From NCBI GenBank assembly GCA_016742095.1, contig JACVCJ010000014.1, forward strand, positions 17,777 to 81,776: a stretch of 64,000 nt of DNA. Direction: 5' to 3'. Within the stretch, counting starts at the first letter, position 1. The number at the start of each line of letters is the position of its first letter. A program made the position numbers and the translations under genes. The notes beneath the pieces are model-generated. The model had not been told where the DNA came from. It did no database searches and saw only the letters and a program-made list of their open reading frames with translations. The DNA comes from Bacteroidia bacterium. Lineage in GTDB: Bacteria; Bacteroidota; Bacteroidia; CAIKAF01. Of this stretch, positions 8,396 through 34,693 are shown piece after piece.

Positions 8396-9757
8396 ATGAA
8401 GTCTGTAAAAAAACATATTCTACCCGTATTTGTACTCCTGCTTTTGTTTGTGGGACTGAGTTTCCTGGCGCTGATCGGTGTGGCGCAGAAAAGTACCAGT
8501 TCGCTCAAAAAAGAAAAAACATCGCTGGAGAGCAAAAAGAAATACCTGGCCAAAGAGATCGAAAAGGCCGGCAAGGAACTGAATGCCACCGCACAGAAAC
8601 AGAAAAAGACCTTAAAATACATCGACCAGCTTTCTACCAAGATCCAGTTCCGCGAAGAACTGGTGGAGACCTACCGCAGCGAGGTCTCTATACTGGAACA
8701 GGAGATCAGCGGCAACATGAAACGCAAAAAAACGCTGGAAGAACAGGAGGCCGAACTGATGAAACTGTACGGCCGTATGGTGTATTTTGCCTATAAGAAC
8801 CGCAATTCCGACGATAAATTCCTCTACGTACTGGCCTCCGACGACATGAACGAAGCTTTTTCACGGGCTTCGTACTTTAAGCGTCTGGCTTCCTTCCGCA
8901 GGGCCCAGCTCGCACAGATCAAAGGCACGCAACTGGCGCTCAGCACGGTGATCCATACCCTGGATTCGAACAAACAACAGAAAGTGAACGTGCTGCAGGC
9001 CGAAGAACAGCAGAAGACCAAACTGGAGAATGAAAAGCAGGACCAGCAGAAACTGGCCCAACAGCTCAAAGGCAAGGAAAGTGAGATCCGTAAAAAGATC
9101 AGCCGTAAGGAAACGGAACGCCAGCAGCTCGAAAATAAGATACAGGATATTGTACGTAAACTGATCGAAGAAGAGCGCAAAAAAGCAGAGGCTGCCGCGA
9201 AGAAAAAAGCTGCCGCCGCCGCTGCAAAACCGGCTGGTACGGGTTCTTCCTCATCGGGTACGGGCAGCAAACCGGCCGCATCATCATCTTCTTCGAAGCC
9301 TGCCGCAGAGGTGAACATGACCGTAACGCCCGAAACGCGTATGAAAAGCGCCTCTTTCGAAGGCAATAAGGGCAATATGCCCTGGCCGGTAGAAAAAGGA
9401 GCCATCACCGGACGTTTCGGCGTGCAGCCGCATCCGTACCTGAAAAACGTGACGGTAAAGAACGACGGTGTGGACATTACGGCGCCCGCCGGCGCTTCGG
9501 CCCGTGCCATATTCGACGGCGAAGTGAGCGGTATTTTTGCGGTGGACGGTTACGGCAAGGTCGTGATCCTGCGCCACGGCGAGTACTACACCGTATACTC
9601 CAACCTGAGTGAAGTTAACGTTAAGAAAGATACCAAAGTGAGCGCCAAACAGAAAATAGGCGCCATTATGACCGCCGAAAACGGCAAAAGTGTAATAAAT
9701 TTCCAGATACGGAAAGGCAGTGTTACACTCAATCCATCGCTCTGGCTGGCTTACTGA
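8396..9757 (+). CDS. EnvC-like murein hydrolase activator / M23 family peptidase with N-terminal coiled coil
   Basis: A signal/TM segment is followed by a long Lys/Glu/Gln-rich coiled coil and an Ala/Ser-rich linker. The C-terminal M23 (LytM) domain reads GVDITAPAGASARAIFDGEVSGIFAVDGYGKVVILRHGEYYTVYSNL. Confidence 0.8.
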   Translation: MKSVKKHILPVFVLLLLFVGLSFLALIGVAQKSTSSLKKEKTSLESKKKYLAKEIEKAGKELNATAQKQKKTLKYIDQLSTKIQFREELVETYRSEVSILEQEISGNMKRKKTLEEQEAELMKLYGRMVYFAYKNRNSDDKFLYVLASDDMNEAFSRASYFKRLASFRRAQLAQIKGTQLALSTVIHTLDSNKQQKVNVLQAEEQQKTKLENEKQDQQKLAQQLKGKESEIRKKISRKETERQQLENKIQDIVRKLIEEERKKAEAAAKKKAAAAAAKPAGTGSSSSGTGSKPAASSSSSKPAAEVNMTVTPETRMKSASFEGNKGNMPWPVEKGAITGRFGVQPHPYLKNVTVKNDGVDITAPAGASARAIFDGEVSGIFAVDGYGKVVILRHGEYYTVYSNLSEVNVKKDTKVSAKQKIGAIMTAENGKSVINFQIRKGSVTLNPSLWLAY

Positions 9758-13075: not shown

Positions 13076-16000
13076 TTAGCGCATCAGGTACATTTTTCCG
13101 AATCCTTTCTTGAAGAAGGAGTCGGCCTCGGTAGCACGACGGTCGATATTTTCGCCGTTGATCTCTGTATAAGCGCGGTACAGGTAAACGCCGGAGGCCA
13201 GTTTGTTGCCGAACTCGTCGGTGCCGTCCCAGGCGTAATCGGTAATGTTGTTGCCGATGTGAATGTTGCCGAGCTCTTCCATCATGATCTCGCGTACGAT
13301 CACCCCGTTGATATTAAAGATCTGTATCTTGAAGAAAGTGGGCAGTTCGCTGCCGGTGAGTGTAAATACAAAGCGGGTAGAGGTGCTGAAGGGGTTGGGG
13401 TAATTGAGGATCTGGGTAATACTCGATTTGTTCACAATGTTGAAGCGGATCCTGTAATCGAAGGTGCCGTCGCCGTTGCCGCTGGCATTATTGGTCTTAT
13501 CGCGGGCGCGCAGCATCAGTTCGTACTGGCCGTCGGCCATGGAGAAATCCGGGCGGAATTCGAGCCGGGCATTGTTCTTGGAATTGGTGGCCGGGTAAAA
13601 ACTCACGTCGGAACCGCTCAGCGGAACGGGCACGATATTCGAACTGCCCGGGTAACGCAGGAAAACCTCGAAGCTCGACGTATCGTTCAGCAGCAGTATG
13701 GGGTTTTCGTCCTTCAGCTGGATCAGGATCACCGGTTTGGCCGATACAATGTCGCCGTCCATGATCCGTACTCCGTCAAAGGTAACGTCCAGCAGGGGAT
13801 TGATCTTGTCTTTATCAGTATAGAAAGGCCGGTCGGCCAGGTTATTGAAATGGTACTGCTCCGTAAAACGGTCGGGCCGGTCCAGCGGGTTGGCCTCGGT
13901 CCAGAGGACGTTCAGGCCCGGGTAATTCATGTTTTCGATCGTAAAAGTGTCCAGCAGGAACTGTCCCACAGTAAGGCCGTTGTACTTTTTGTAGAAATTG
14001 GTAACGGCATTGTTGCTGTTCACGATAAAGTGTTTCACAATAACGGAATCGGTATTGTAATCGCCGATGTTCTCCACGGGCATCACCAGTCGCAGCGTCT
14101 GGCCCTGTGGCAGGGTATCGGCCGCAAAGGAAAAGCCGGAACGTGCCGGGTTCAGCGATATTTCGGGCACGCCTTCGTACAGCACGTGCCAGCGCCGCAG
14201 TTGTGCCGGTGTGCGGATGCTGTCGTCCCGGGTAAAGAAACGCAGTTTCAGGTAAGGGTACTGGCTGGCATTGATGGTGTTGCCCAGGTTGAACACTTCG
14301 CCCGGAACAGGTTGCAGCGCACTGATGAGCGTGGTTTCCACGCCGCCGTTCACCCCGATGATGTCTACGGAAACGCTGTCGAAACTGGGAATTTCGGTAC
14401 TCTGCTGAAAATAGCTCATGTAATCCCAGTTTTTGGCCGGACCGATCAGCGGACTTTCGATATTCCCGAAGATCCAGTCATTTTCCAGGTCCTGGGTAAG
14501 CGTAATGGTAGCGGAAGGACTGTTCCCCACCACTTCGGCGGTAGTGGCCGGGTATCCCTTGCGGGTAAAGAAAATATAGGGCAGGTTTTGTCCGCCGGCG
14601 GCCAGCAGTTGTATGGAATCGGCGCCGAGATTGATAAAAGCATTGAGCTGATCGGGCGTAAACTGGCTGAAGTTGGTGCTCCACATGGTATAGGCCAGTA
14701 TGTAATGCCCGTTGGGAACGGTGTTGTTCAGCAGGTTCTTGAGTTGTTCACGGGAGTTATTATCGCCCTGCAGGTAGATGAAATAAGCTTCCTGGCGGTC
14801 GCGGCAGGGTAGCTGGCACTGGTTGTACTGTCCCAGGTTATAACCGCCGGTACCGGTACAGTTCGTTTTCCAGGGTTCCAGTGTAAGAGGATCGATAATG
14901 GCCACATAGATACCCGGAATGGTATTACAGGCACCATATTCCATCAGTATGCCGTCCATATCGTATTTACACTGTTCGCTCTGTGCCACGCTTACATTAC
15001 CTATGGTAACGCAGCGCAGCTGTTTGCGGTTCTCATTGAATTCGAACAGGCGCTGCGGTTCATTGTAATCGATATACGTATATTTATCGTTCCTGAACTG
15101 CGGAAAATCGGCCTGGCCCCAGCCTCGCTTGTTCACAATGTACTGGAACGAAGAATAGCGCCATTTTCCAAACGTAAGGTTCCCGGTGGTATCCACGCCT
15201 ACGCGCCAGTAAAACACGGTACTGTCGGGCATGTTCAGCTGCGGGTTCCATTGCATTACCCCGCCGGTCTGACTGATGAGCGTGTCTTTTTTCCAGCTGC
15301 TGGTAAAATAGGCATTGGTGTCTATTTCCATGCGGTAATTACGCAGGGGTGCAAAAAGATTCCCCGTTACGGCCTTTATTTTTGTGTTGGGCAGGGGCAC
15401 CACGGCAAATTCCTGCGGGTAAACGGGTATCACTTCGGCAGAGGCGATATTTACCGTTTTTACCACTTTGTTGTTGAACTCGTTCAGTTCTTCCACGAAG
15501 TTGTTCGGGTCCAGCGTAATGGTAAAGATATTGCTGCCCTGGCCGTTCACCGGATCGGTGGCGAACGTAAGCCGGAGCGTATCCGAAAACATCAGGGGCG
15601 GCAGTTTGTAGGCATAAATATCGTTGGGTTTGCCCTGTTTGGGATAATCGCGTATTACCTCGATACGCAGGGAGTCGTTCATGGCGCGGCCGTAGTTGGT
15701 TATGGCTATGGTGATATGAAAAGAATCCTGGTCGGTCGTGATCACCGCCGGACTTACCACCACGCTCTGGTCCGTGATCATGGGGTCGGGCCTGGTATAG
15801 GACATGATCTTCAGCGCCGGGTCGCCGTGGATGGAGAACTCCAGGTAGTTCAGTATGTCGAAAAAGCCGCCGTTCTGTATATACAGCTCATTTACGGACG
15901 CAGTAAGACATTCCCCGATACTTTTGGTATACATATCGCGGGAAACGTTTCGGTACCAGGTACGCGTAATGTTGAATACGGGGTTCTGCAGGCTGTATCC

Positions 16001-18100
16001 CACGGCAGAAAGGAAGGCCACGGAACCTTTTTCGGGTTCCAGCACGAAGCGTTCGCTGATGGTGGGCGTAGCCTGGAACAGGTCGCCCGAGAGGCAGGAG
16101 TTGGCCACGATCACCGGGTAACGCCCGCTGTTGTTGTAATCGGCTGGTTCTTCAATATTGATATCGAAGCCGCTGCCCGAGGCATGTCCGAAGAAGGTCA
16201 TCAGCGCTACGCCGTTATTGATGATCCCCTTGAGGCTGTCGGCCACGGTCTGTGATACCGGAGCATTGGACGATTTTCCGAAGAACAGCGCACGGCCGGC
16301 CATCGCCGAATCCTGCCAGTGCGATTTATAGGTGTCCAGGTACGATTTGAACAGGTTCTGTTCTGCCTGGCTCGATCCGCCCGCAAAATGCAGGGCCTTT
16401 TTCATCCATTCGGCAGGGTGGTTCTGTTCGTTCTGCTGTACCTTCAGCAGGTAATTGCTTACATCGGCCGGGGTACGTGCCGCCAGGCGCCCGATGGGGG
16501 TGTGATGCCTGGGCGGACTGGTATTTTCGTATACATAGTTATTGTCCGTAGGCGGATAGCCCATGGCCGGTATATAGTTCTGCGCGGCTACGGCGGGATT
16601 CAGCCGCACCTGATCGGGGAAATACGATTTGCCGATAATGAATATGGCTTTCGGTTTTATGTTCCACTGCTGCCGGGCATAGTTCAGGAAGCGGTAAATA
16701 CCCAGTGGGTGTCCGTTCATGCCGAACCCGAACTGGTCGTACAGCTCGCGCACGTCCAGAACCAGCGGATTGTAACCGCTCAGGTTGCGGTATGCGGCGT
16801 ATTGCAGGGCCTCGTTCCAGAAAAAGGATGAGGTGATCACCAGGTAATCGCGGTTGGAATACATGGCGCTGAGATCCCGGAATTTGCCCGGCAGCGCCCC
16901 GGCCGAATTCACCGGCTGTATATTGCTCACCTTGATGGTGGCGCTGTCCGACGTAAGAATACATTGCTTGTTGCCGCTGCCGCCGTTGGGTACCACCACC
17001 TGCCAGTTGCCGGAAACGTTCTGCACCTGTATACGTTTTCCGTTGCTTACATCGTACAGGTACACCTGGGAACCGAGGGCGTTAAAATTGCTGATGGACA
17101 GCGTGTATTTGGCCTGCGCCGCATTATTGGGAACATACAGTATGTGCGAACTGCGGTTGCTCAGGTTATAGGTCTGCGGAAGCAGCGCGCGCACATAGCT
17201 GAGGGCATTGCGTGTGGACGGACTGGAAGGTGCCGGGGCAAAACCTACCGAATATACATTGGCGGCGGCCGCTACCGAAGAAGCAGAGGCGTTGAGGTTG
17301 TAGCGGTTAAAGCTGAAATTGTACAGGTTGGAATCGATCTGGGCCGAACCGAACGTAACCTTGTGGTTATGGTCAAAGTTCATCAGGTTGGACGAAGGGT
17401 TCGACGCGCCTGCGGCCCACACGCTCAGGCTGGCCTGGGGCCCCGCAGTGTACATGGTGTTCTTCAGGTTGGCAAAATCGCCTGTCCAGCCCTGGTTAAT
17501 GGTTTGTGCATTGGTGTAGATGGTGGCATAGCCTTCGCCGCTCTGGTAGCGGGCGTCTTTCTGAAAACTGCTGTAAAAAGCGCCCTCGTTGTATGTGGAA
17601 CGGTAGCCCTGTTCCACCAGCGCCCAGTAAAAAGGAGAGGTGTTCCAGGCGCTGAAATTATTATCGAGCTCCGTTACGAAACGCAGCCCGAAACTGGTGC
17701 CGGTCGTAAGAAAATAAGAGGCCGTATCGGTGTACAGGTTCACTTTTTTGTTGCCCTGCCATCCCGGCTGAAAATACAGTACGGAGTCGGGCGTACCGTC
17801 GTTGCTGATGCCGAAAAAGTCGATATGATCGCCGGGATCGAACTGTCCGTCGCCCTGTCCGGCTATGTAAACGGTCTGTTGCTGTCCGCGGAAATACAGC
17901 TGAAAATACCTCGGGTCCGAACTGTTCACCGGGAAACCCGAAGCCGCGAGGGCCGCGTAGGTAATGCGGTGCATGCCTGTTTCGGTCACCTGGATCTTGT
18001 AGTAGCTCTGGTCGTACCGGATCCATTCGTTACCATATACCTGGCTGCGTGCCGCAAGAGGAAGCAGAAAAAAAAGTATATAGATCAGGTGCTTTTTCAT
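13076..18100 (-). CDS. porU: PorU-like T9SS C25-family (gingipain-like) peptidase / sortase carrying a C-terminal T9SS sorting domain
   Basis: The 1674-aa product has a signal peptide, then GNEWIRYDQSYYKIQV.., the characteristic PorU N-terminal region. A C25-peptidase-like region follows (..YLVITSSFFWNEALQYAAYRNLSGYNPLVLDVRELYDQFG..IFIIGKSY..). The last ~80 aa (..ILNYPNPFSTSTRFVFTL..GVYLYRAYTEING..) look like a T9SS C-terminal domain. A PorV-like gene is immediately adjacent. Confidence 0.6.
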   Translation of the reverse strand: MKKHLIYILFFLLPLAARSQVYGNEWIRYDQSYYKIQVTETGMHRITYAALAASGFPVNSSDPRYFQLYFRGQQQTVYIAGQGDGQFDPGDHIDFFGISNDGTPDSVLYFQPGWQGNKKVNLYTDTASYFLTTGTSFGLRFVTELDNNFSAWNTSPFYWALVEQGYRSTYNEGAFYSSFQKDARYQSGEGYATIYTNAQTINQGWTGDFANLKNTMYTAGPQASLSVWAAGASNPSSNLMNFDHNHKVTFGSAQIDSNLYNFSFNRYNLNASASSVAAAANVYSVGFAPAPSSPSTRNALSYVRALLPQTYNLSNRSSHILYVPNNAAQAKYTLSISNFNALGSQVYLYDVSNGKRIQVQNVSGNWQVVVPNGGSGNKQCILTSDSATIKVSNIQPVNSAGALPGKFRDLSAMYSNRDYLVITSSFFWNEALQYAAYRNLSGYNPLVLDVRELYDQFGFGMNGHPLGIYRFLNYARQQWNIKPKAIFIIGKSYFPDQVRLNPAVAAQNYIPAMGYPPTDNNYVYENTSPPRHHTPIGRLAARTPADVSNYLLKVQQNEQNHPAEWMKKALHFAGGSSQAEQNLFKSYLDTYKSHWQDSAMAGRALFFGKSSNAPVSQTVADSLKGIINNGVALMTFFGHASGSGFDINIEEPADYNNSGRYPVIVANSCLSGDLFQATPTISERFVLEPEKGSVAFLSAVGYSLQNPVFNITRTWYRNVSRDMYTKSIGECLTASVNELYIQNGGFFDILNYLEFSIHGDPALKIMSYTRPDPMITDQSVVVSPAVITTDQDSFHITIAITNYGRAMNDSLRIEVIRDYPKQGKPNDIYAYKLPPLMFSDTLRLTFATDPVNGQGSNIFTITLDPNNFVEELNEFNNKVVKTVNIASAEVIPVYPQEFAVVPLPNTKIKAVTGNLFAPLRNYRMEIDTNAYFTSSWKKDTLISQTGGVMQWNPQLNMPDSTVFYWRVGVDTTGNLTFGKWRYSSFQYIVNKRGWGQADFPQFRNDKYTYIDYNEPQRLFEFNENRKQLRCVTIGNVSVAQSEQCKYDMDGILMEYGACNTIPGIYVAIIDPLTLEPWKTNCTGTGGYNLGQYNQCQLPCRDRQEAYFIYLQGDNNSREQLKNLLNNTVPNGHYILAYTMWSTNFSQFTPDQLNAFINLGADSIQLLAAGGQNLPYIFFTRKGYPATTAEVVGNSPSATITLTQDLENDWIFGNIESPLIGPAKNWDYMSYFQQSTEIPSFDSVSVDIIGVNGGVETTLISALQPVPGEVFNLGNTINASQYPYLKLRFFTRDDSIRTPAQLRRWHVLYEGVPEISLNPARSGFSFAADTLPQGQTLRLVMPVENIGDYNTDSVIVKHFIVNSNNAVTNFYKKYNGLTVGQFLLDTFTIENMNYPGLNVLWTEANPLDRPDRFTEQYHFNNLADRPFYTDKDKINPLLDVTFDGVRIMDGDIVSAKPVILIQLKDENPILLLNDTSSFEVFLRYPGSSNIVPVPLSGSDVSFYPATNSKNNARLEFRPDFSMADGQYELMLRARDKTNNASGNGDGTFDYRIRFNIVNKSSITQILNYPNPFSTSTRFVFTLTGSELPTFFKIQIFNINGVIVREIMMEELGNIHIGNNITDYAWDGTDEFGNKLASGVYLYRAYTEINGENIDRRATEADSFFKKGFGKMYLMR

Positions 18101-19200
18101 TCGCTTTTCTTTTTGCCGGATTTAAGATTGAGTCCCACGCGCAACGAGAATACGTGCGAAAACAAAAAGGTACTCTGGTTGCCGAGGGAGGCCAGGGCGT
18201 AATCCACGTAAATGGTCTTTACCCGGAAACCGGCCCCGATATTGGGCTTCACCAGCCATATATCCTTGCTGCCGTCGCCTTTGCTGCGCTGGAACTGGCC
18301 TACGCCGCCCCGGATGAACACAATGTCTTTGTACCCGAATTCCACGGCGATACGCGGGTCCATACTGAGCGGTTTCCCCGCTACCAGTACGTTACGCTTG
18401 CCGTCGGTGGTAATGATCCAGTCGAGCGAGGGTCGTACAAAATACCGCTGTTTTTTATCGATCCACTGCTGGTACGAAGCTCCCAGCACGATCTGCGGCA
18501 GCGCCAGTTCCGAGGATTTACGCAGTATCTCGTTGCCGGTAAGGGCAAAGGTCTTTTCAAACGTTTCGGTGTTGTAGCTGAAGTTGGTTATCGTAGTGGT
18601 AATATCGCGCAGCAGCAGTCCTGCCCGCAGGTTCCGGTACTGGTACTGTACGCCCAGGTCCACGCCAAAGCCCCAGCCTTTACCAAATTCCCCGATGTTG
18701 CGGTGCAGCACCTTCATACTGCCGCCCACGCTGAGGCCTTTTACAGGCATCTGCCGGGCAAAGGATACAAAGAATGCATAATCGGCCACGGAAAACGCGG
18801 TGATACGGTCGTAACGGATACGTCCGTCGCTGTCGATCAGTTCCAGGGTGTTCGGGATATTGTCCACCCCGCTGCGGATCACCCCGAAACCCAGTCCGTT
18901 CTTTTCTCCGGCCTTGATGCCGATGGCCCCGAAGTCATATTTTACGATGCCGCCGAAGTGTTCATTGTGCATCAGGGAAACGTCCAGCGTACTTTTGAGC
19001 CGGGTAAGGCCCGCCGGGTTCCAGTAAATGGAAGAAGCGTCCTCGGATATGGACGTATAGGCATTGCTCATGCCCAGTGCGCGTGCATTCACCCCAATAT
19101 CGAGATAGGCATTGGTGTAGGTGTAGGTCTGGGCGCGACAAGCCGCCGCCATAAAAAAAGCGGCAAGCACAGGGTATATGTTAATGCAGATGAATTTCAC
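18097..19200 (-). CDS. porV: PorV-like (LptO) T9SS outer-membrane beta-barrel protein, FadL-like family
   Basis: The 367-aa product has a signal peptide and a conserved ..NARALGMSNAYTSISEDASSIYWNPAGL.. segment, and ends in aromatic-rich beta-strands. It overlaps the start of the PorU-like gene by 4 bp. Confidence 0.55.
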   Translation of the reverse strand: MKFICINIYPVLAAFFMAAACRAQTYTYTNAYLDIGVNARALGMSNAYTSISEDASSIYWNPAGLTRLKSTLDVSLMHNEHFGGIVKYDFGAIGIKAGEKNGLGFGVIRSGVDNIPNTLELIDSDGRIRYDRITAFSVADYAFFVSFARQMPVKGLSVGGSMKVLHRNIGEFGKGWGFGVDLGVQYQYRNLRAGLLLRDITTTITNFSYNTETFEKTFALTGNEILRKSSELALPQIVLGASYQQWIDKKQRYFVRPSLDWIITTDGKRNVLVAGKPLSMDPRIAVEFGYKDIVFIRGGVGQFQRSKGDGSKDIWLVKPNIGAGFRVKTIYVDYALASLGNQSTFLFSHVFSLRVGLNLKSGKKKSE

Positions 19201-19737: not shown

Positions 19738-20892
19738 ATGTGTATCTTCGTCCCTATGCCGCGCCTTCATCTTGTATCGTTCAATATTCCGTATCCGCCG
19801 GACCAGGGCGGACTGGTGGACGTATATGCCAAAATATGTGCGCTGAAGGAGGCCGGGGCCGAAGTGGTGCTGCACTGCTACGAGTACAACCGGGCACACG
19901 CACCGGAACTGGAAAAATACTGTGCGGAAGTGCATTATTACCCGCGGCATAAGAACCTGTTCTCCCTGTTTTCCCTGCTGCCTTTCATCGTTTTCAGCCG
20001 CCGTTCGGCCACGCTGGAAAAATACCTGTCAGAAGCTAAAAATGATGAGCCGGTATTGCTCGAAGGGTTGCATACGGCCTATTACCTGGGCAAGAAAGCT
20101 CTGCAGGGTAAAAAAGTGTGGCTGCGTACGCACAATGTAGAGCACCGCTATTATGCCGGACTGGCCGATGCAGAACCCGGACTGCTGAAAAAGTGGTTCT
20201 TCCGTCTCGAAGCCTTTAAGCTGAAACGTTTCGAACCGATACTTTCGGCCGCGGACGGACTTTTCTGTATCTCGGCCGCCGATGAACAGCATTTTCGTAT
20301 ACATAACAAAAACACCAGCCTGGTTTCTGCATTCCACCTGGAGAACGAGGTGCGCTCTCAGCCCGGGCTGGGCAATTTTGCCATGTACCACGGCAGCCTC
20401 GACGTTCCCGAAAATTACCGGGCGGCGCTCTGGCTGGTGAACGAGGTCTTTGCTGAAAGTACCGTACCCCTGCACATTGTGGGCAATCGTGCTCCCGCGG
20501 CTCTGCGGGCGGCCATCGATAAACATCCGCATATACGGCTTATGGAGAACGCCGGTCCGCAGCAGATACAGGAAATGATGACGGAAGCCCAGGTGCATGT
20601 GCTGCCCACTTTCCAGGCTACGGGTATTAAACTGAAGTTGTTGCACGCACTGTTCGCGGGGCGCTTCTGCATTGTAAATCCGCCTATGGTGCTGGGCACC
20701 GGGCTGGAAGAATATTGCACCCTTGCCGGCGATGCGGCGGAAATGCGTTACCAGGTTGAAAAATACATGCAACTGCCGTTTACGGAAAGCGATCTGCAGG
20801 CACGTAAAAAACTCAATGAAAGTATATTTGCCAACCGCGTCGGCGCGCGTACGGTCTTAGCGGGTCTGGGCCTCGCTCAGGATGCCGTTTGA
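19738..20892 (+). CDS. glycosyltransferase (GT-B fold, family 1/4-like)
   Basis: The 384-aa product has a GT-B architecture. An alternative start at 19756 is possible. Confidence 0.65.
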   Translation: MCIFVPMPRLHLVSFNIPYPPDQGGLVDVYAKICALKEAGAEVVLHCYEYNRAHAPELEKYCAEVHYYPRHKNLFSLFSLLPFIVFSRRSATLEKYLSEAKNDEPVLLEGLHTAYYLGKKALQGKKVWLRTHNVEHRYYAGLADAEPGLLKKWFFRLEAFKLKRFEPILSAADGLFCISAADEQHFRIHNKNTSLVSAFHLENEVRSQPGLGNFAMYHGSLDVPENYRAALWLVNEVFAESTVPLHIVGNRAPAALRAAIDKHPHIRLMENAGPQQIQEMMTEAQVHVLPTFQATGIKLKLLHALFAGRFCIVNPPMVLGTGLEEYCTLAGDAAEMRYQVEKYMQLPFTESDLQARKKLNESIFANRVGARTVLAGLGLAQDAV

Positions 20893-21537
20893 GCAGATGA
20901 GCGTGCGCGAAGGGTAGGCCCGCAGCAGGTCATAATCGTGCGTGGCCAGCAGTACCGATGTGCCTTTGGCCGCGATGTTCACCAATAGCCGGAGTATTTC
21001 GTTCGATGTTTCGGGGTCCAGGTTACCGGTAGGTTCATCGGCCAGGATCACTTCGGGGTTGTTGAGCAGGGCACGGGCCACCACCACGCGCTGTTGTTCA
21101 CCGCCCGAAAGTTCGTGCGGGTATTTGTGCAGCTTGGTCTTCAGGTTCACGCTTTCCAGCACTTCGGCTATGCGCTTATTGATCTCCTCTTTCTGTGTAG
21201 TACCGGTGGCGCGGAGCACAAAGGCCAGGTTATCGCCCACGGTACGGTCGGTAAGCAGCTGAAAATCCTGGAAAATAATGCCGATCTTGCGGCGCAGCAT
21301 GGGCACCTGTTTTGTTTTCAGTCCGTTCAGTTCAAAGCCGGCCACGTGTGCGGTACCTTCTTCCAGGGGCAGTTCACCGTACAGGGTCTTCAGCAGTGAA
21401 CTTTTACCACTGCCGGTTTTACCTACCATATATACGAATTCTCCGTCGCTGATCTCAAATCCCACGTTTTTCAGCACCAGGTTCTTGTCCTGGTAGATCT
21501 GAACATTTTCCATTTTTATTTTGGCTGTTTCCGGCAT
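20857..21537 (-). CDS. FtsE-like ABC transporter ATP-binding protein
   Basis: It has a Walker A motif (GKTGSGKSS), an ABC signature ([15 protein letters not shown]) and a Walker B motif ([11 protein letters not shown]). At ~220 aa it is FtsE-sized, and no permease gene is adjacent. Confidence 0.8.
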
Positions 21538-21753
21538 GCTTAATGTTTTTTAACGAGGGCTTTTATATCATTCAGCCCGGTATTGAACGTTACAAAGATG
21601 AGCTTTTGCCCGGGCGGAATACAGCAGGTCCTTAAATAATTATTAAATGCAGGCCGTTGAAAAATATGCCCTTGTACAAAAGAACGCCTGAGACAGCCTG
21701 TGTACTTTTACCCCGTGAACGTGTAATCAATCAAGAAATAAACTCGATCCAGA

Positions 21754-24700
21754 ATGCGTATGAATGTTCGTAAGGTGTGGTTCTCCCTGTTGCTCATCAC
21801 TCTCTCTGCCGCCGTACAGCCTTTGCTGGCACAGCGGAGCCGTATACATACCGAGCCCGATAAATTGTATAAGGATGCCGTGGAATTGTACCAGAAAGAG
21901 AAATATGCGGCCGCCTATACCATGTTCGGCGATTTTATGGAGAACGGACGTTACGGGCAGCGCCAGAGCCTGGTAGATGCCGAGTATTTCCGTGCGGTCT
22001 GTGCTACCGAACTTTTTTACAACAATGCCGAGGGACTGCTTACGGATTTTATCCGCAGTCACCCGGAGAGCCCGCTTTCTTCCAATGCGTATTTTCACCT
22101 GGGTAAAGTGGCTTTCCGTGCCCGGGATTATAAAAAGGCCTCGCAGTATTTCGACCAGGCCGATCCCAATACGCTGAGCCGCGCCGAATGGTACGAATAC
22201 TACTACAAATCGGGCTACAGCGCCTTCGAAAATAAAGATTACAAAAAGGCCCTGAACTATTTTGTAAAGATCAAGGATGCCGAAAGCGTGTACCGCGTGC
22301 CTGCCACGTATTACTATGCGCATATCCGTTACGTGGAGCAGAACTGGAACGAAGCGCTGAAAGCCTTTAAGTCCATCGAGAACGAGAAGGCCTTCCGCGG
22401 ACTGGTGCCCTATTACATTGCCCAGATCTACTATATGCAGAAAAAGTACGAGGACGTGATCAGCTATGCACGTCCCCTGGCCGATACCGTAAAGGGCAAG
22501 AACAGCGCCAATGTGTACCGCATCCTGGCCGAAAGCTATTACAATACCGGACGTTTTAAGGAAAGCCTGGAGTTTTATGATAAATACGCCGCGCTCGATG
22601 AGCTGGACCGCCTGGGCAATTACCGCTACGGTACCGCCCTGTATAAAAGCGGTTCCTACGAGGCCGCCTATGAACGCCTGAAACTGACCGTGGCCGAGGA
22701 AGACAGTATTTCACAGACGGCCTATTACCTGCTGGCCGACTGCGCCTACCGTACCGGGGACAAACGGAAGGCCGCCGATGCCTTTAAAATGGCGTACAAG
22801 CTCAATTTCGACAAAAATATGGCCGAAGATGCCCTCTTCAACTTTGCCAAACTGAGCTACGAGACCGACTACGATCCGTACAACGAGGCCATCCGCGCGT
22901 TGAAGGACTACCTGGACAAATACCCGGAGAGCAAACGGGCCGATGAGGCCTATTCCTTCCTGGCCGAAGTATTCATGACCGTGAAAAGTTATAAGGACGC
23001 CCTGGAGACCCTGGACAAGATCAAACGCAAGGACCCGCGCCTGAAGCAGGCCCGCCAGCGTGTGGCCTTCCTGTATGGCACGCAGTTCTTCGAAGAAGGG
23101 AATTACCCCGAGGCCATCAATTATTTTAACCAGGCTTCCGCTTCGGGACTTAATGACGTGGTAACGGCCCAGAGTATCTTCTGGACGGCAGAATCGTACT
23201 ACCGTACCGGCCGCATGCGCGATGCCGAGGAAGGTTTTTCCGAGTTCCTGAATACCCCGGGCGCCATGAGCAGCGGTCTGCGCGACGACGCCTACTACAA
23301 CCTGGGCTACATCTATTTCAAGGATAAAAAGTACCCGGCTGCCGGTGTGGAATTCCGCAAGTATGCCGATAACCGCAAGGCAAGCAACCCACAGCTGGCC
23401 GCCGACGCCTATAACCGGGCGGGCGACTGCTACTATGCCCAGCGTGAATGGAGCAAGGCCCTGGAATACTACGATAAGGCCTATGCCATTAAAAAGGCCG
23501 ATCCGGATTATTCCCTGCTGCAGAAAGCCACCATACTGGGCCTGCAGAAGAAACACGGCGAAAAGATGACCCTGCTTACCAAACTGCGTACCGATTATCC
23601 CAATTCGGTGTATACCGCCGAAGCCATGTACGAAAGCGGGGTAGCGCTGCAATCCCAGGGTAAAAAGAACGAGGCTGTTACGTATTTCGAACAGGTGATA
23701 CAAAAATACCCGAACGGCCCCTTTGCCAAAAAGGCCTACCTGAAACTGGGCCTGCACTACTACAACCAGGACCAGGACGAAAAAGCCCTGAGCTACTACA
23801 AACCCGTGCTGGAGCGCTTCCCGGGTACGCCCGAAGCCGACGAGGCCATTAAATACGTAAAGTTCATTTACATAGACGAAGGCCGCATCGACGAATTCAC
23901 CGACTTTATGCGCAGCGTAAGCGGGGTGAATTATACCGAATCTTCACTCGATTCCGTGGCCTTCCGGGCCGGGGAGAACAAATACCTGGCAGGCGACTGC
24001 GCCGGTTCCATCGTGAACTTTAACCAGTACATCACCAAATTCCCGGCCGGTACTTTCATTAAAAATGCCCATTACTACCGTGCCGAATGCCTGCGCGAAC
24101 AGAAAAAGGAAAAAGAGGCCCTGGCCGATTATGAGTACCTGATCGAAAACACACCGAACGATTACCTGCTGCTGTCGCTGGAACGCGCTTCAGACATCGC
24201 CTTTAAAGAAAAGGACTGGGAACGGGTACGTAAATATGCCTACGAGAACGAACGCCTGTCCGAAAAGGCGAATGTACGCCAGACCAGCATAGAACGTATA
24301 CTGCTGGCCGAATACGAACTGGCCAACTATCCTGCGGCCGCCATCTATGCAGGCAAAGTGTACGAGAGCGATAAATCGGCCAAAGAAGTAAAAGAATACG
24401 CAGCCCTGCTGGCCGCCCGCAGTGAAACAAAGGCAGGTAATGCCACCGCCGCCGAGATCTGGTGGAAAAAACTACAGGGACAGTCGAGCGCCATCGGTGC
24501 CGAAGCCAAATACAATATCTACACGGCCATGTTTTCCCGGGGCGAATACAAACAAACGGAGAAAAAGATCCTGGCCGATGTGAACAGCCTTTCCAACTAC
24601 GGCCTGTGGATGGGTAAATCCTTTATTATCCTGGGTGATGTATATGCTAAACTCGAGAATTTTGACCAGAGCATAGCCACCCTGCAATCGGTGATCGACA

Positions 24701-24822
24701 ATGCCGAAGACGCCGCCGTAGTGGACGAAGCCCGCCTGAAACTGGAAGAAGTGAAAACGGCACAGCGGATCAGGAACCAGCCGGCCAACAATAATTTTGA
24801 ATTTGACTTAAACGGAAATTAA
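21754..24822 (+). CDS. large secreted tetratricopeptide-repeat (TPR) protein
   Basis: The 1022-aa product has a signal peptide (..LSAAVQPLLAQ) and TPR-like A/Y/L periodicity throughout (AYYNLGYIYFKDKKYPAAGVEFRKY.., EAMYESGVALQSQGKKNEAVTYFEQVIQKYP..). Confidence 0.8.
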   Translation: MRMNVRKVWFSLLLITLSAAVQPLLAQRSRIHTEPDKLYKDAVELYQKEKYAAAYTMFGDFMENGRYGQRQSLVDAEYFRAVCATELFYNNAEGLLTDFIRSHPESPLSSNAYFHLGKVAFRARDYKKASQYFDQADPNTLSRAEWYEYYYKSGYSAFENKDYKKALNYFVKIKDAESVYRVPATYYYAHIRYVEQNWNEALKAFKSIENEKAFRGLVPYYIAQIYYMQKKYEDVISYARPLADTVKGKNSANVYRILAESYYNTGRFKESLEFYDKYAALDELDRLGNYRYGTALYKSGSYEAAYERLKLTVAEEDSISQTAYYLLADCAYRTGDKRKAADAFKMAYKLNFDKNMAEDALFNFAKLSYETDYDPYNEAIRALKDYLDKYPESKRADEAYSFLAEVFMTVKSYKDALETLDKIKRKDPRLKQARQRVAFLYGTQFFEEGNYPEAINYFNQASASGLNDVVTAQSIFWTAESYYRTGRMRDAEEGFSEFLNTPGAMSSGLRDDAYYNLGYIYFKDKKYPAAGVEFRKYADNRKASNPQLAADAYNRAGDCYYAQREWSKALEYYDKAYAIKKADPDYSLLQKATILGLQKKHGEKMTLLTKLRTDYPNSVYTAEAMYESGVALQSQGKKNEAVTYFEQVIQKYPNGPFAKKAYLKLGLHYYNQDQDEKALSYYKPVLERFPGTPEADEAIKYVKFIYIDEGRIDEFTDFMRSVSGVNYTESSLDSVAFRAGENKYLAGDCAGSIVNFNQYITKFPAGTFIKNAHYYRAECLREQKKEKEALADYEYLIENTPNDYLLLSLERASDIAFKEKDWERVRKYAYENERLSEKANVRQTSIERILLAEYELANYPAAAIYAGKVYESDKSAKEVKEYAALLAARSETKAGNATAAEIWWKKLQGQSSAIGAEAKYNIYTAMFSRGEYKQTEKKILADVNSLSNYGLWMGKSFIILGDVYAKLENFDQSIATLQSVIDNAEDAAVVDEARLKLEEVKTAQRIRNQPANNNFEFDLNGN

Positions 24823-24825
24823 GCC

Positions 24826-26526
24826 ATGAAGATGTCAGCACGCATATATACAGCCGCTTTTACCTTACTGTTCCTTGCCGCAAACGCCTTTTCGCAGACT
24901 CCGTCAGACAGTGTGACCATTACCGGGGGCTATGTGCCCGAACTGCGCGCCGTGGAAAAAATCGCCACACGTCCCGAAGTGGTGGACACTTTCAGCAAAA
25001 AACTGAAACCGACCTACGATATACGGCCCCGCATCGTGGATTTTTATTACATTCCCGATACGCTGAGCGCCGCCCGTATGAAGACCGAACCGCTGAAAAA
25101 ACTGCGTCGTTTCTATGTGAAGCTCGGCTTCGGCAACTACCTTTCGCCCCTGGCCGAAGTGCGTATGAACAGTCTGCGTAGCAAGCAGTTCCAGTACGAC
25201 GTATACTATAAGTACTTTGCCAGCTACGGTAAAAAACTGTTCTTCGGCAAGAACAAACCGCAGTACGGTTACCCGGGTATCCAGGACCACGGCGGAGGCG
25301 CCAATTTTTCGTATATGCTTAAAACGCATACCCTGGGCGTGCATGCCGGTTACCAGAGCAACCAGACCCATTTTTACGGCTACGACGCTTCACAGCCCGG
25401 CCTGGACACCATCGATAAAAAGGATATCCGCCAGAACTACCAGAAGATCGACATAGCCCTCAGCTTTAAGAACAACCGCCTCTGGGACAGCACCAGACTG
25501 ATCACCGAGAACTATATACGCTATTATTATCTTTTCGACCGCTACAAGGCCTCGGAGCACGGACTGGATATCCGCAGCGACTGGCGTAAAATGGTGGCCG
25601 GTTTCTTTGTGGGCGGAGCCCTGGGCGTGGAATACTATTCCTACAGGGCCGATACCGCCACGGGACGCTCTTTCCGGGGCGGACTGGTACACATAGACCC
25701 GTACATACGCGCCGGCAAGCGCATCTGGGACGTACAGGCCGGTCTGAATATCGCCTTTGGCTATGATACGCTCACCAAATTTTACATTGCACCCAATATA
25801 CGGGCCCGGGTAAATGCCTGGAAAGAACACGTGGTGGTATATGCCGACCTTACCGGGGGCGCCTACCGCAATACCTTTGACGCCCTGCGCCGTGGCAACC
25901 CGTTCATCGTGAGCCATGTGCCCGTACGCAATGCCTATAAGCCCATTGATCTGCTGGCCGGTATCCGCGGTAAATTCGCCAAAAACTTTTACTACAACCT
26001 GGGCGGCGGTTACGAAAAGGTCTTCAACAAGGCCTTTTATATGACCGATACCACCCGTGCCCTGGGCAATTACTTTACCGTGGCCTATGACGACCTGGGT
26101 ACCGGCAAGTTGTTTGCCGAACTGGGCTACGAACGCGGCGAAGTGCTGCGCGTGGGCATGCGTGTGAACGCCTACTTCCTGGACCCGGGCAATTTTGCAA
26201 AAGCCTGGTATATGCCCCAGTACGATGCTACCCTGAGTGCCATGTACAACCTGCGCGACAAGTTTATCTTTAAGGTGGACCTGTTTTACCTCGGCGATCA
26301 GTTTGCTCCGAAGTATACGCTCGATCCCAATACCATGGTGCGCAACCTGGAAGTGGTGCGCCTGCGTAACGCCATCGACCTGAACATTGGTGCGGAATAC
26401 CGTTACAATAAACTGCTCAGTTTCTTTATACAGGGGAACAACCTGGCCGGTTTCCGCTACAACCGCTGGCTGCAGTACCCCACACAGGGCGTAAGTGTAC
26501 AGGGCGGCATAACGCTCAGCTTTTAA
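24826..26526 (+). CDS. predicted outer-membrane beta-barrel protein, co-transcribed with the TPR protein
   Basis: The start lies 3 nt after the TPR stop. The 566-aa product has a signal peptide, alternating aromatic/hydrophilic beta-strand patterns, and a C-terminal ..GGITLSF ending in Phe, as outer-membrane-protein signatures do. Confidence 0.55.
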   Translation: MKMSARIYTAAFTLLFLAANAFSQTPSDSVTITGGYVPELRAVEKIATRPEVVDTFSKKLKPTYDIRPRIVDFYYIPDTLSAARMKTEPLKKLRRFYVKLGFGNYLSPLAEVRMNSLRSKQFQYDVYYKYFASYGKKLFFGKNKPQYGYPGIQDHGGGANFSYMLKTHTLGVHAGYQSNQTHFYGYDASQPGLDTIDKKDIRQNYQKIDIALSFKNNRLWDSTRLITENYIRYYYLFDRYKASEHGLDIRSDWRKMVAGFFVGGALGVEYYSYRADTATGRSFRGGLVHIDPYIRAGKRIWDVQAGLNIAFGYDTLTKFYIAPNIRARVNAWKEHVVVYADLTGGAYRNTFDALRRGNPFIVSHVPVRNAYKPIDLLAGIRGKFAKNFYYNLGGGYEKVFNKAFYMTDTTRALGNYFTVAYDDLGTGKLFAELGYERGEVLRVGMRVNAYFLDPGNFAKAWYMPQYDATLSAMYNLRDKFIFKVDLFYLGDQFAPKYTLDPNTMVRNLEVVRLRNAIDLNIGAEYRYNKLLSFFIQGNNLAGFRYNRWLQYPTQGVSVQGGITLSF

Positions 26527-28166: not shown

Positions 28167-29810
28167 ATGAGAGTATTCTTTTTTATATTTTTCTCTATCG
28201 CCTTCGGTCTGCAGGCCCTGGCCCAGCAGGTATCGAACGTGACCGAAGTACGGAACGGCAAAAAATACTATGTGCACACTGTACAGAAAGGAGAGACCGT
28301 GTACGGCCTTACCCGCCTGTACAAAACTACGGAAGAGGCTGTTTATAAAGAGAATCCCGGTTCCCGCCAGGGCATAAAGGCCGGCGAGAAGCTGTACATC
28401 CTGTTCCCGGGTCAGCCGGAAAACAACAACAATACCCGGCTGCCGGTAGATCCGCCGCAGAAAAGTGTAAAACATACCGTACAGAAAGGGGAGACGCTCT
28501 ACGGCATCGGCAAACGCTACGGGGTTAGCGTAGACGCGCTGGTTGCGGCCAATCCGCAGGTAGAAAGCGGCCTGAAAGTGGGCGAGGTGCTTACCATCCC
28601 GGGCAGTTCACAGATCGTACTGAAAGAAGATACGCCGCCCGAAAAGGACGAAGAGCCGGAGACGCCCGTGGTGATACAGACCCCGGTGAAAGATGCCGGC
28701 AGCACCCGTATGCTGACCCGTGCGGAATGCGCCGCTTCGCCCGCCCGTAAAGACGAATACAACATTGCCGTGCTGCTGCCCCTGGGCATGGAAGCCGGTC
28801 CGCAGAACAAACAGGCGCGCATCGCTTTCCAGTTCTATGCAGGGATACGCCTGGCCATACAGAAATACGAGCCGCAGAAAGCCCGCATCAACTGGCGCTT
28901 TTTCTCCACCGGTTCCAAAATGGACGAGGCCTCGGTAAATGCCATCATTCAGAAACCCGATTTCCGCAAGTCAGACCTGATCATCGGCCCCCTCTACACC
29001 TCGGAAATGGGCCCGGTGCTCGAATATGCCGCACAGAACAAAACCCCGCTTATCAGTCCTTTTTCCCGCGGGAACGATATCCTGGAGAACAATCCCTATG
29101 TACTGAAGGCTTCACTTTCCGAAGAGACCTATACCTCGGCCGTGGCGCGTTTCCTGAACACCCGCTACAAAGCCGGCAAGGTGATCCTGCTGAATACCGG
29201 CCTCAAAAAAGACTCGGTGTTCTACCAGATGCTGCGCGATACCCTGGTGCTGAAATACCGCTTCGACAGCGTAAGCGCCAACCGCAACCTGGTGTACCTG
29301 CCCAAGGGCGGTAACGTGGCGGCTTTCGTGAAAAAAGGCGTGCCCAATATCTGTGTATATCCTACCAATAAAGAAATTACGGTCAATTCCTTCTTCTCCG
29401 GCATCAATAAAATAGGCAAAACGAACGACTTTGCCGTGCTGGGCGAGGAGTCCTGGTTCGGTTTCCGCAATTTCGACGTGGAGCATTTCAATAACTGCCG
29501 TATTCACATTCCGGTGATATATAAGACCTTCGACTGGGATTCCACGCATGCGTCCTTTATCCGGAACTTTAAAGAAGAATACAGCAGCGAACCGGAGTTT
29601 TACGCTTTTAGGGCCTACGAAACGGCCTGCCTGGCCATCGACCTGCTGGAACAGTACGGAAATGCCGCTGTGCCCTGTGTACAGTACGACGAGCGCAAGT
29701 ACCTGGTTACGCCTTTCCGCTGGCGTAAGCTGCCCAACGGCGGATTCGAAAATACGGGTATGGGCATGATGATCCTCGAAGACTATGAAATACGCTACGA
29801 GGCGTATTAA
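28167..29810 (+). CDS. LysM-domain protein with a periplasmic-binding-protein (type I) like C-terminal domain
   Basis: A signal peptide is followed by two LysM repeats (HTVQKGETVYGLTRLYKTTEEAV.., HTVQKGETLYGIGKRYGVSVDALVAANP..), a Pro/Glu linker and a ~350-aa PBP-like domain. Confidence 0.7.
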   Translation: MRVFFFIFFSIAFGLQALAQQVSNVTEVRNGKKYYVHTVQKGETVYGLTRLYKTTEEAVYKENPGSRQGIKAGEKLYILFPGQPENNNNTRLPVDPPQKSVKHTVQKGETLYGIGKRYGVSVDALVAANPQVESGLKVGEVLTIPGSSQIVLKEDTPPEKDEEPETPVVIQTPVKDAGSTRMLTRAECAASPARKDEYNIAVLLPLGMEAGPQNKQARIAFQFYAGIRLAIQKYEPQKARINWRFFSTGSKMDEASVNAIIQKPDFRKSDLIIGPLYTSEMGPVLEYAAQNKTPLISPFSRGNDILENNPYVLKASLSEETYTSAVARFLNTRYKAGKVILLNTGLKKDSVFYQMLRDTLVLKYRFDSVSANRNLVYLPKGGNVAAFVKKGVPNICVYPTNKEITVNSFFSGINKIGKTNDFAVLGEESWFGFRNFDVEHFNNCRIHIPVIYKTFDWDSTHASFIRNFKEEYSSEPEFYAFRAYETACLAIDLLEQYGNAAVPCVQYDERKYLVTPFRWRKLPNGGFENTGMGMMILEDYEIRYEAY

Positions 29811-32695: not shown

Positions 32696-34693
32696 ATGAA
32701 CATTGACCTGCCAGAATTGGCTTTCGACAGAAAAGGCATCAGTCTCAAAGAATTAAAAAAACTGTATAAGCATCTTCTTGCACCCCGTCTTATCGAGGAG
32801 AAGATGCTTATTCTGTTACGTCAGGGCCGTATTTCCAAATGGTTCAGCGGGATCGGCCAGGAAGCCATTTCTGTAGGTACCACACTGGCGCTCGATCCCG
32901 ATGAATACATTCTGCCTATGCACCGCAACCTGGGCATGTTCACTTCGCGCGGGATCCCGTACGAAGATCTTTTTAAACAGTTCCAGGGCAAGGAAGGCGG
33001 TTTTACCAAGGGCCGTGACCGTAGTTTTCACTTCGGTACCAATGATTACCACCTGGTGGGGATGATCTCGCACCTGGGCCCGCAGCTGGGCGTAGCCGAC
33101 GGTATTGCCCTGGCCACCAGACTGAAAAAAGAAAACAAAGTTACCCTTGTGGTTACCGGTGACGGGGGTACCAGTGAAGGCGATTTTCACGAAAGCCTGA
33201 ACGTGGCTGCCGTGTGGGACCTGCCCGTGATCTTCGTGATCGAGAACAACGGCTATGGACTCAGCACCCCGAGCAACGAACAGTTCCGTTGCGACCTGCT
33301 GGCCGACCGGGCCATCGGTTACGGAATGGAAGCGGTGACCATCGACGGTAACAATATCCTGGAAGTATACAACACGACGCGCCGCCTGGCCGAAGATCTG
33401 CGCCAGAATCCGCGTCCGGTGATCCTGGAATGCATCACGTTCCGTATGCGCGGCCACGAAGAAGCCAGCGGTACCAGGTACGTACCCCAGTATCTTTTTG
33501 ATGCCTGGGCCGCTAAAGACCCGATCACGAATTACGAACAATACCTGCTTGCAGAAGGCATACTCACGGCCGATGAGGTTATGGAGATCCGGGCCGAGAT
33601 CAAAAAAGAGATCAGCGACTCGGTAGAAAAAGCCTTTGCCGTGCCTGCCGTTACCGCCAGCGACGAGACCGAACTGAACGATGTGTACGCTGCGTATACA
33701 CAACAGATAACCCCGCCCATTGCACGTACACGTGAAATGCGCTTTGTGGACGCCGTTTCCGACGGACTCCGTCAGGCCATGTACAAACACGACAACCTGG
33801 TGCTGATGGGGCAGGATATTGCCGAATACGGCGGTGTATTTAAAGTAACGGAAGGTTTCGTGGAAGAATTCGGGAAGGACCGTGTACGCAATACACCGCT
33901 CTGCGAAAGCGCCATTGTGGGTACCGCACTGGGCCTTTCCATCAGGAAAATGAAAGCCATGGTAGAGATGCAGTTCGCCGATTTTGTGACCTGCGGTTTC
34001 AACCAGATCGTGAATAACCTGGCAAAATCGCACTACCGCTGGGGACAGAACGCCGATGTGGTGGTACGCATGCCGGCCGGTGCCGGTGTGGCTGCGGGCC
34101 CCTTCCACAGCCAGAGCAACGAAGCCTGGTTTTTCCACACACCGGGCCTCAAAGTGTTCTATCCTTCTACGGCTGAAGATGCCAAAGGTATGCTGATCGC
34201 GGCTTTTGAAGATCCGAACCCCGTTGTGTTCTTCGAACATAAGGCCCTGTACCGCAGCGTGAGCGGCCAGGTGCCCGAGGGCTATTACACCGTGGAGATC
34301 GGTAAGGCCCGCCGGGTAACGGAAGGCAGCCGCGCCACCATTGTAACCTATGGTTTCGGAGTACACTGGGCCCAGGAAGAACTGGAAAAGAACGGCATCG
34401 GGGACGTAGAGATCATCGACCTGCGCACCCTGCTGCCCTGGGACAAGGAAACCGTTGCCGAAAGCGTACGCAGGACCGGCCGTGTGCTGGTACTGCACGA
34501 AGATACCGTTACAGGCGGTATCGGCGGCGAAATTGCGGCATGGATAGCCGAAAATTGTTTTGAATACCTGGATGCCCCGGTAAAACGACTGGCATCACTG
34601 GATACGCCTGTGCCCTTTGCACCGAACCTGGAATGGAATTTCCTGCCCCGGAACCGAATTGTGCATGTATTGAACGAACTATTAAATTACTAA
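32696..34693 (+). CDS. thiamine-diphosphate-dependent 2-oxoacid (branched-chain/pyruvate-type) dehydrogenase E1 component, fused alpha-beta subunits
   Basis: The 665-aa product has an E1-alpha ThDP-binding fold (..[38 protein letters not shown]..) followed by an E1-beta transketolase-like Pyr domain and C-terminal domain. Confidence 0.85.

Follow-up and report, generated by a model that had tools for sequence, protein, structure and literature searches.

A conserved gene pair of Bacteroidota encodes a 1,000-residue TPR protein and a predicted plug-less outer-membrane barrel, with division-linked genes among its neighbours

INTRODUCTION

In the Tol-Pal system of Proteobacteria, the periplasmic tetratricopeptide repeat (TPR) protein CpoB keeps peptidoglycan synthesis in step with the outer-membrane constriction that Tol drives, and TolA pulls on the N-terminus of TolB. 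Like TolA, TonB captures its partners on the outer-membrane side by short strand motifs at their N-termini. The ATPase FtsE belongs to the divisome, and SPOR domains recognise septal peptidoglycan by binding its denuded glycan. TonB-dependent transporters, such as FyuA, FhuA and BtuB, have a 22-strand barrel (PF00593) that is filled by a globular plug of ∼130–150 amino acids (aa; PF07715). A TPR scaffold combined with a barrel is the hallmark of the AlgK-AlgE, PgaA, BcsC, PelB-PelC and Slam systems. Here we describe a pair of genes, for a long TPR protein and an outer-membrane barrel, found in a 64,000-nucleotide stretch of DNA from a Bacteroidia bacterium (assembly GCA_016742095.1, contig JACVCJ010000014.1, positions 17,777 to 81,776). 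This whole stretch is called the window below, and all coordinates are positions within it.

For Bacteroidetes, one analysis reports neither identifiable tol-pal loci nor pal genes and regards further systems that stabilise the outer membrane as still to be found (PMC12204202, 2025). In the same work, PorE (PG1058) was offered as a possible fused CpoB-TolB-Pal-like tether between the outer membrane and peptidoglycan in this group. Barrels related to TonB-dependent transporters with a reduced or absent plug are also described: the 'Type S' lid-less SusC-like transporters of Bacteroides, which are missed by Pfam (bioRxiv 10.1101/2025.11.13.688124). We report that the TPR and barrel genes form an operon conserved across many Bacteroidota, that the barrel is predicted to have the fold of a TonB-dependent transporter without its plug, and that the conserved neighbours of the pair suggest, though they do not prove, a role as outer-membrane end of an undescribed Tol-Pal-like cell-division/envelope machine.

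RESULTS

The TPR and barrel genes form a conserved operon

Both genes are on the plus strand and start with ATG. The TPR gene (21754–24822; 1022 aa) is followed by the barrel gene (24826–26526; 566 aa) across the junction TAA-GCC-ATG, a gap of 3 nt that keeps the same frame. An earlier note on this DNA, made from the letters alone, had described a tight operon of a secreted TPR protein and a predicted outer-membrane barrel, and the coordinates and the junction agree with it.

We performed a pattern scan of GTDB species genomes seeded with 11 closer sequences, a design that samples the closer relatives, and 297 stretches were confirmed as matches. Neighbourhood counts for the window's clade refer to the best 80 of these 297 (L001–L080; 28–98% barrel identity). 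A full-length TPR orthologue was observed directly upstream of the barrel gene, on the same strand, in 77 of the 80 loci, and in the other three the contig ends at the barrel. Co-occurrence of the two genes, which the earlier note had set beforehand as a test, was thus borne out. The spacing of the two genes varies from overlaps to gaps of ∼200 nt, a range consistent with a single operon; the TPR and barrel genes form a two-gene operon.

All of the best 80 loci are from metagenome-assembled Bacteroidota and carry the labels Flavobacteriales, Bacteroidales, Bacteroidia, Sphingobacteriaceae or 'Chitinophaga'; one of them, L001, is from a Flavobacteriales genome and shares 98% identity with the window. 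Both ORFs far exceed what chance would give. Among 1.84 billion cluster representatives (50% identity), a profile search detected 2,883 barrel relatives at E ≤ 1e-30, and at least 823 full-length relatives of the TPR protein (1000–1060 aa) were found at E ≤ 1e-30. When a divergent member served as the query, Cytophagales came up as well, among them the cultured Chryseolinea sp. H1M3-3 and C. lacunae. The cultured Chryseolinea surfaced solely by this route, and the look-ups of cluster members returned metagenome-assembled genomes only. The TPR relatives are named only 'tetratricopeptide repeat protein' or, at JGI, 'TolA-binding protein'. Members of the barrel family are called 'hypothetical protein' and occasionally 'TonB-dependent receptor', a label that is misleading. 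In the literature on plug-less TonB-dependent transporter-plus-TPR systems and on SPOR/ExbB clusters in Bacteroidetes we found no description of the pair. The earlier suggestion of an uncharacterised outer-membrane complex is right.

The barrel is predicted to have a transporter fold without the plug

AlphaFold2 modelling of the barrel protein from a 40-sequence alignment gave a confident barrel, with a mean predicted local distance difference test score (pLDDT) of 81 and a predicted template modelling score (pTM) of 0.76. We also modelled TPR residues 401–1022 and the mature barrel as one fused chain on a block-diagonal alignment; in this second model, the pLDDT of the barrel part was mostly >90. 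The beta-barrel domain (25111–26523, plus strand; aa 96–566) has ∼22–24 strands by DSSP and short loops, and its C-terminus reads ...GGITLSF. The model and this ending confirm the predicted outer-membrane barrel of the earlier note. In a Foldseek search, the model matched BtuB with an E of 1e-14, that is, it shows the same barrel fold as the TonB-dependent transporters.

At the sequence level the likeness is faint. When the barrel alignment was used as a profile against PDB sequences, only the C-terminal strands of PfeA were matched (E 0.009). No Pfam or NCBIfam model matches the barrel or 40 diverse homologues, even at E ≤ 1, and neither PF00593 nor the plug family PF07715 is found in any of 40 family members.

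The place of the plug is taken by a periplasmic N-terminal extension (24895–25110, plus strand; aa 24–95), which puts ∼70 residues before strand 1. Unlike the globular plug of the transporters, which fills the barrel, this segment is predicted to be disordered in both models (pLDDT <50). It is conserved like the barrel itself (mean column conservation 0.44 versus 0.37–0.50). At its very tip lies a conserved linear motif (24910–24990, plus strand; aa 29–55) with the consensus [EDQ]29-[VI]30-x-[VI]32-[VT]-[GK]-x-[YF]36-x-P38-x-[IVL]40-x-[DE]-A-x-K45-[IL]...P50-x-[IV]-x-D54-[TS]. Among the 40 homologues, columns 30, 32, 36 and 40 are hydrophobic in 93–97%, P38 and P50 are each kept in 93% and K45 in 90%. 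The first part of the motif reads D-S-V-T-I-T-G in the window. It looks like the TonB boxes of E. coli, DTITVTA in FhuA and DTLVVTA in BtuB.

The barrel, as modelled, has a TonB-dependent transporter fold without a plug. We propose that it derives from such a transporter, which lost the plug and kept a flexible periplasmic tail of ∼70 residues.

The TPR protein is a periplasmic scaffold with CpoB-type modules

The TPR protein begins with a signal peptide (21754–21831, plus strand; aa 1–26) whose probable cleavage site follows ...PLLA, and the AQ at positions 26–27 is kept in an alignment of 71 orthologues. The signal peptide of the barrel protein (24826–24894, plus strand; aa 1–23) probably ends in ...AFS; the residue after it is Q24, a glutamine shared by 39 of 40 diverse homologues. 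Both mature proteins therefore probably begin with Q right after the signal peptide (21829–21834 and 24892–24897). N-terminal pyroglutamate formation is a habit of Bacteroidota, and the mature Q starts of both proteins fit it. No lipobox cysteine is present in the N-terminal signal peptide of either protein.

The mature TPR protein is almost wholly TPR (Pfam TPR_16, 135.7 bits, with many further TPR models and no other Pfam family), which upholds the secreted TPR protein of the earlier note. Its best NCBIfam match is the CpoB/YbgF TPR-domain model, tol_pal_ybgF TIGR02795, with 201 bits over six stretches and the cutoff of 90.1 passed. Several other models score below their cutoffs: BamD TIGR03302 (78.1 bits over two stretches, cutoff 81.4), PorW/SprE NF052312 (73.4, cutoff 250), full-length CpoB NF008068 (49.6, cutoff 383) and the CHU_0125 model (26.1, cutoff 620). 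Pfam YfiO gave 34.3 bits. The earlier statement that neither protein carries a named-family motif holds for the barrel, and for the TPR protein only in so far as its matches are to generic or CpoB-type TPR models. We conclude that the TPR protein is a soluble periplasmic scaffold of ∼1,000 residues built from CpoB/YbgF-type TPR modules. CpoB itself has ∼260 aa, with an N-terminal coiled-coil and one TPR domain, whereas the protein described here is ∼4 times longer and has no coiled-coil.

In the fused-chain model, residues 401–1008 form an unbroken array of helical hairpins with pLDDT >90. The better conserved half of the protein in the 71-orthologue alignment is the N-terminal one. The C-terminal tail (24754–24819, plus strand) is charged, rich in Glu and Lys and disordered in the fused model (pLDDT <50), and it carries the motif NFEFDL. 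In 59% of the 71 orthologues, the 60 C-terminal residues include a phi-x-phi-x-[FML] motif, compared with 19% of shuffled tails. Across the window and L003–L080 the tail motif varies (NFEFDL, MKIEFKE, IKVEFEG), and many lineages add a second motif, DKDLF or QKKLF, after it.

Division-linked genes adjoin the pair in two clades

We compared the neighbourhoods of the pair in the window's clade with those of five Cytophagales-type loci (L081–L085), which include the cultured Chryseolinea sp. H1M3-3. All five have the order rhomboid, holA, TPR (1008–1044 aa), barrel (558–569 aa), a bitopic protein (227–288 aa), MotA_ExbB, ExbD and a protein of 277–315 aa. The block is co-directional, with gaps of 2–120 nt, and the genes past it vary from locus to locus. 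The bitopic protein has a C-terminal Pfam SPOR domain in four of the five orthologues (21.4–26.3 bits, cutoff 21). In the Chryseolinea orthologue Pfam SPOR is unmatched even at E ≤ 1, and it is by our own reading of its C-terminal sequence that we assign it a putative SPOR domain. The ExbB-family protein scores higher with TolQ (92.2 bits) than with ExbB (49.9 bits), both under the cutoffs. The 277–315-aa protein has an N-terminal membrane helix, a linker rich in Pro, Lys and Glu and a weak, sub-cutoff match to the TonB C-terminal domain (15.9–19.1 bits).

Ahead of the block in L081–L085, the rhomboid protease and holA are preceded by a conserved protein of 153–158 aa without a family match (Pfam scan of L081). 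Upstream, on the opposite strand, are a sigma-54 activator and a hybrid histidine kinase.

In the window's clade, the recurring neighbour is an FtsE-like ATPase gene. An orthologue is divergent from the TPR gene, 136–640 bp from its start, in 55–56 loci by tblastn, and clustering of open reading frames (ORFs) places it there in 53 of the 65 loci with enough upstream sequence; in all, ∼85% of informative loci have this arrangement. Beyond it, the recurring neighbours are housekeeping genes only. The gyrB gene is downstream of the pair in at least 21 loci, GT4 glycosyltransferases adjoin the ftsE-like gene in ∼23 of the 80, and a small 164-aa gene, a putative DNA methyltransferase, is upstream in 16. 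The genes murB, mdh and TerC near the pair are likewise tentative identities, read from the letters and not from a family scan. Pal (an OmpA-like lipoprotein) and TolB (a beta-propeller) are not among the conserved neighbours of either clade (neighbourhoods, not whole genomes, were searched).

With SPOR in one clade and FtsE in the other, the pair therefore has two independent division-linked neighbours in two clades.

The locus in the window

The FtsE-like ABC ATPase gene of the window (20857–21537, minus strand; 226 aa) is divergent from the TPR gene. Its product matches Pfam ABC_tran with 119 bits. NCBIfam FtsE (TIGR02673) gives 248.2 bits, under the cutoff of 264.85, and the runner-up family is ∼70 bits lower at 177.8; the ATPase is called FtsE-like because FtsE is the best family by this difference yet remains under its cutoff. 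No permease adjoins the gene, and none was found among the scanned ORFs of the window, as the earlier note had remarked of this ATPase. The 216-bp divergent region between the ftsE-like and TPR genes (21538–21753) presumably contains a shared promoter region. Scans of the locus for sigma-70 promoters and terminators gave sites no commoner than chance, with a tool that lacks the promoter types of Bacteroidota.

The ftsE-like gene is overlapped at its 3' end, by ∼36 nt, by a convergent GT4-type ORF (19738–20892, plus strand). This ORF is in turn overlapped by one on the opposite strand (20029–20772, minus strand), and only the plus-strand ORF has a family match.

Upstream of the pair by 2.5 kb are PorU2 and PorV2 (13076–19200, minus strand; NF052324, 674.7 bits, and NF052325, 414.7 bits), paralogues of the sortase and shuttle of the type IX secretion system (T9SS). 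The earlier note was right about the place of these genes, but they are the PorU2/PorV2 paralogues and not porU/porV. PorU2 (1674 aa) has a T9SS sorting domain of its own at the C-terminus (Por_Secre_tail, aa 1567–1646). Downstream, the pair is followed by guaA and by genes of a LysM protein and of a PKD/CHU_C cargo protein. The gene of the 547-aa LysM protein (28167–29810, plus strand) adjoins the pair solely in the three closest loci. Other genes of the window related to the cell wall are those of a 453-aa M23 peptidase (8396–9757, plus strand), murB (3763–4791) and ddl (60854–61834).

Other genes of the window

Several genes farther from the pair are also worth recording. In the operon znuA-ABC-permease-permease (56295–60116), one gene (57964–59229, plus strand) encodes an ABC-3 (ZnuB-like) permease joined, at the C-terminus, to Fe_dep_repr_C (77.8 bits), the metal-binding domain of iron-dependent repressors; such a fusion of transporter and sensor is unusual. 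At 53243–56239, the gene of a 796-aa MORN_2-repeat protein (plus strand) is overlapped by an antisense ORF of 965 aa, whose only family match is AlgH-like and covers aa 797–948. Because only this C-terminal part matches a family, the real gene here is probably a short algH-like one, artefactually extended to the long ORF. Tandem genes of POT/PTR2-family peptide transporters (584 and 568 aa) lie at 48508–51975 (plus strand). Two separate fused E1-dehydrogenase/transketolase-type genes are at 32696–34693 (plus strand; 665 aa) and 43022–45508 (minus strand; 828 aa), and the former is followed by genes that resemble those of biotin synthesis (radical SAM/BATS, aminotransferases).

DISCUSSION

The composition of the pair, which combines CpoB-type TPRs with a barrel of transporter descent and a box-like tip on its flexible tail, together with the division-linked neighbours and the TolQ-like motor, points to a division-associated system energised in the manner of Ton or Tol. 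Our tentative reading, which we hold as possible while falling somewhat short of probable, is that an envelope-spanning system at the division site, driven by a TolQ/ExbB-ExbD motor and analogous in function to Tol-Pal, has the pair as its outer-membrane arm. In such a system the inner-membrane motor would supply power, and a TonB/TolA-like transducer would grasp the N-terminal motif of the barrel. The long TPR array would span the periplasm and recruit partners, as CpoB does with peptidoglycan synthases. Working at the division site, the system might tether or invaginate the outer membrane while the septum forms. Our analysis shows the gene pair and its conservation, the fold and the lack of a plug, and a motif at the N-terminus and neighbouring genes that are both conserved; contact between the TPR protein and the barrel, engagement by a TonB/TolA-like protein, septal action and tethering of the outer membrane are what we infer.

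The likeness to Tol-Pal lies in the shared CpoB-type modules (TIGR02795), in the Cytophagales neighbours that resemble TolQ, ExbD/TolR and TonB/TolA at scores under the cutoffs, in the SPOR and FtsE-like genes, and in the proposed logic by which a force transducer pulls on an N-terminal box of a partner on the outer-membrane side. Pal, a TolB beta-propeller and an OmpA-like peptidoglycan-binding domain are, however, missing from the pair, and its outer-membrane partner is an integral barrel. A more specific claim would make the pair, the SPOR protein and the TolQ-like/ExbD/TonB-like motor the functional Tol-Pal counterpart of Bacteroidota, using the proton motive force to couple septal peptidoglycan to outer-membrane constriction, with the plug-less barrel in place of Pal and TolB and the giant CpoB-like TPR array as periplasmic coordinator. 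We regard this claim as doubtful. PorE is likewise a candidate for the same open question and also has a CpoB-like TPR part (PMC12204202). It is, however, a single lipoprotein with propeller and OmpA-like domains, whereas the pair consists of two proteins with neither domain and includes an integral barrel.

Several observations weigh against a division role. In none of the 80 loci of the window's clade does a SPOR, MotA_ExbB, ExbD or TonB-like gene lie 8 kb or less from the pair, and the 64-kb window has none either; the link to a motor therefore rests on the other clade, where the TolQ, ExbB, ExbD and TonB matches are all under curated cutoffs. The FtsE match is also just below its cutoff, and the adjacency of ftsE and gyrB could be an inherited housekeeping gene order without functional meaning. 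CpoB-type TPRs are a common subtype and no proof of a CpoB-like role. A profile of the N-terminal region of the barrel had no significant match among PDB sequences, and no transporter was found, so the TonB-box likeness stays a visual lead. The fused-chain model had a pTM of 0.51, with two confident domains and a disordered linker between them; it therefore predicts no docking of the N-terminal tail of the barrel or of the TPR tail onto the modelled parts, and the fused model left out the 400 N-terminal residues of the TPR protein, which are better conserved. A plug-less barrel of 22–24 strands would also need something to close it. Finally, every functional step of the reading is one that we infer.

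One alternative is a nutrient channel, in which the barrel would be a reduced TonB-dependent or passive transporter, like the 'Type S' SusC-like proteins, and the TPR protein its periplasmic receiver or chaperone. The transporter fold, the TonB-box-like N-terminus, the ExbB-ExbD-TonB-like genes of the Cytophagales operon and the name 'TonB-dependent receptor' in some database entries are what one would expect of it, and barrels of this type with a reduced plug or none, missed by PF00593, do import small sugars (bioRxiv 10.1101/2025.11.13.688124). The 'Type S' transporters, however, have ∼770 aa and are found in carbohydrate-utilisation clusters, where they lack a TPR partner and are not accompanied by SPOR, FtsE or motor genes. 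Carbohydrate-active enzymes, SusD, binding proteins and inner-membrane importers are missing from the conserved neighbours of the pair. Except for the FtsE-like ATPase, these neighbours are housekeeping genes (gyrB, glycosyltransferases, the 164-aa gene), a housekeeping and division context rather than one of nutrient uptake. In addition, an obligatory 1,000-residue TPR partner and a SPOR protein would have no role in known uptake systems, and the short extracellular loops, another difference from the TonB-dependent transporters, leave little space for a substrate-binding site. We consider a nutrient channel unlikely. A channel for export or surface assembly, in which the TPR scaffold would pass a polymer, lipoprotein or protein to the barrel, seems to us quite unlikely. 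Its architecture, a periplasmic TPR scaffold coupled to an outer-membrane barrel, is that of AlgK-AlgE, PgaA, BcsC, PelB-PelC and Slam; a wide plug-less barrel could let a polymer through, and GT4-type glycosyltransferases are found beside the ftsE-like gene. Yet the barrel similarity is weak, and the synthase-dependent exporters (AlgE/AlgK, PgaA, BcsC, PelB) are defined by a barrel of 16–18 strands and an operon with a polymer synthase. The pair has no synthase, and glycosyltransferases adjoin it in a minority of the loci only.

The earlier note had looked for a secretion or assembly role; this part of it is not supported, and its interpretation as a whole is partly supported. An accessory pair for outer-membrane biogenesis, of the BamD or LptD type, we judge improbable. 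The sub-threshold matches to BamD and YfiO hint at it, and the housekeeping gene context would suit an essential envelope function, but the known subunits of the machinery for beta-barrel assembly (BAM) of Flavobacterium are other proteins. As a BAM subunit proper the TPR protein was rejected: besides this difference, it remains under the BamD cutoff, has 1022 aa where BamD has ∼250–300, and is not a lipoprotein. A T9SS accessory role, with a PorW/SprE-like scaffold and a partner barrel, was the idea named first in the earlier note; it is very improbable. PorU2/PorV2 and the CHU_C cargo gene flank the pair in the window, and PorW/SprE is weakly matched; however, its score is far from the cutoff, PorU/PorV are beside the pair in only two of the 80 loci, both of the closest relatives, and the conserved neighbours of either clade include no T9SS gene. 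The lack of a lipobox is a further argument, since PorW/SprE and BamD, the envelope TPR proteins of Bacteroidota whose models match below threshold, are outer-membrane lipoproteins with other lengths and contexts. On the grounds of linkage, score and lipobox, the T9SS candidate was also rejected.

The division-associated reading bears on how the outer membrane is constricted and stabilised during division in the Bacteroidota, a phylum of major gut commensals, pathogens and environmental polymer degraders. The parts of the pair (CpoB-type TPRs and a TonB-type barrel) and its neighbours (SPOR, a TolQ-like motor and an FtsE-like ATPase) make this question testable. If the more specific claim of a Tol-Pal counterpart is true, the pair would also be a living case in which a transporter barrel has become a mechanical anchor, midway between Ton and Tol. 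The TPR-barrel family merits a protein-family model of its own, the barrel having none in Pfam or NCBIfam. Even if the division hypothesis is wrong, a natural barrel of 22–24 strands that has no plug and always comes with a TPR scaffold of 1,000 residues is new as an architecture of the outer membrane.

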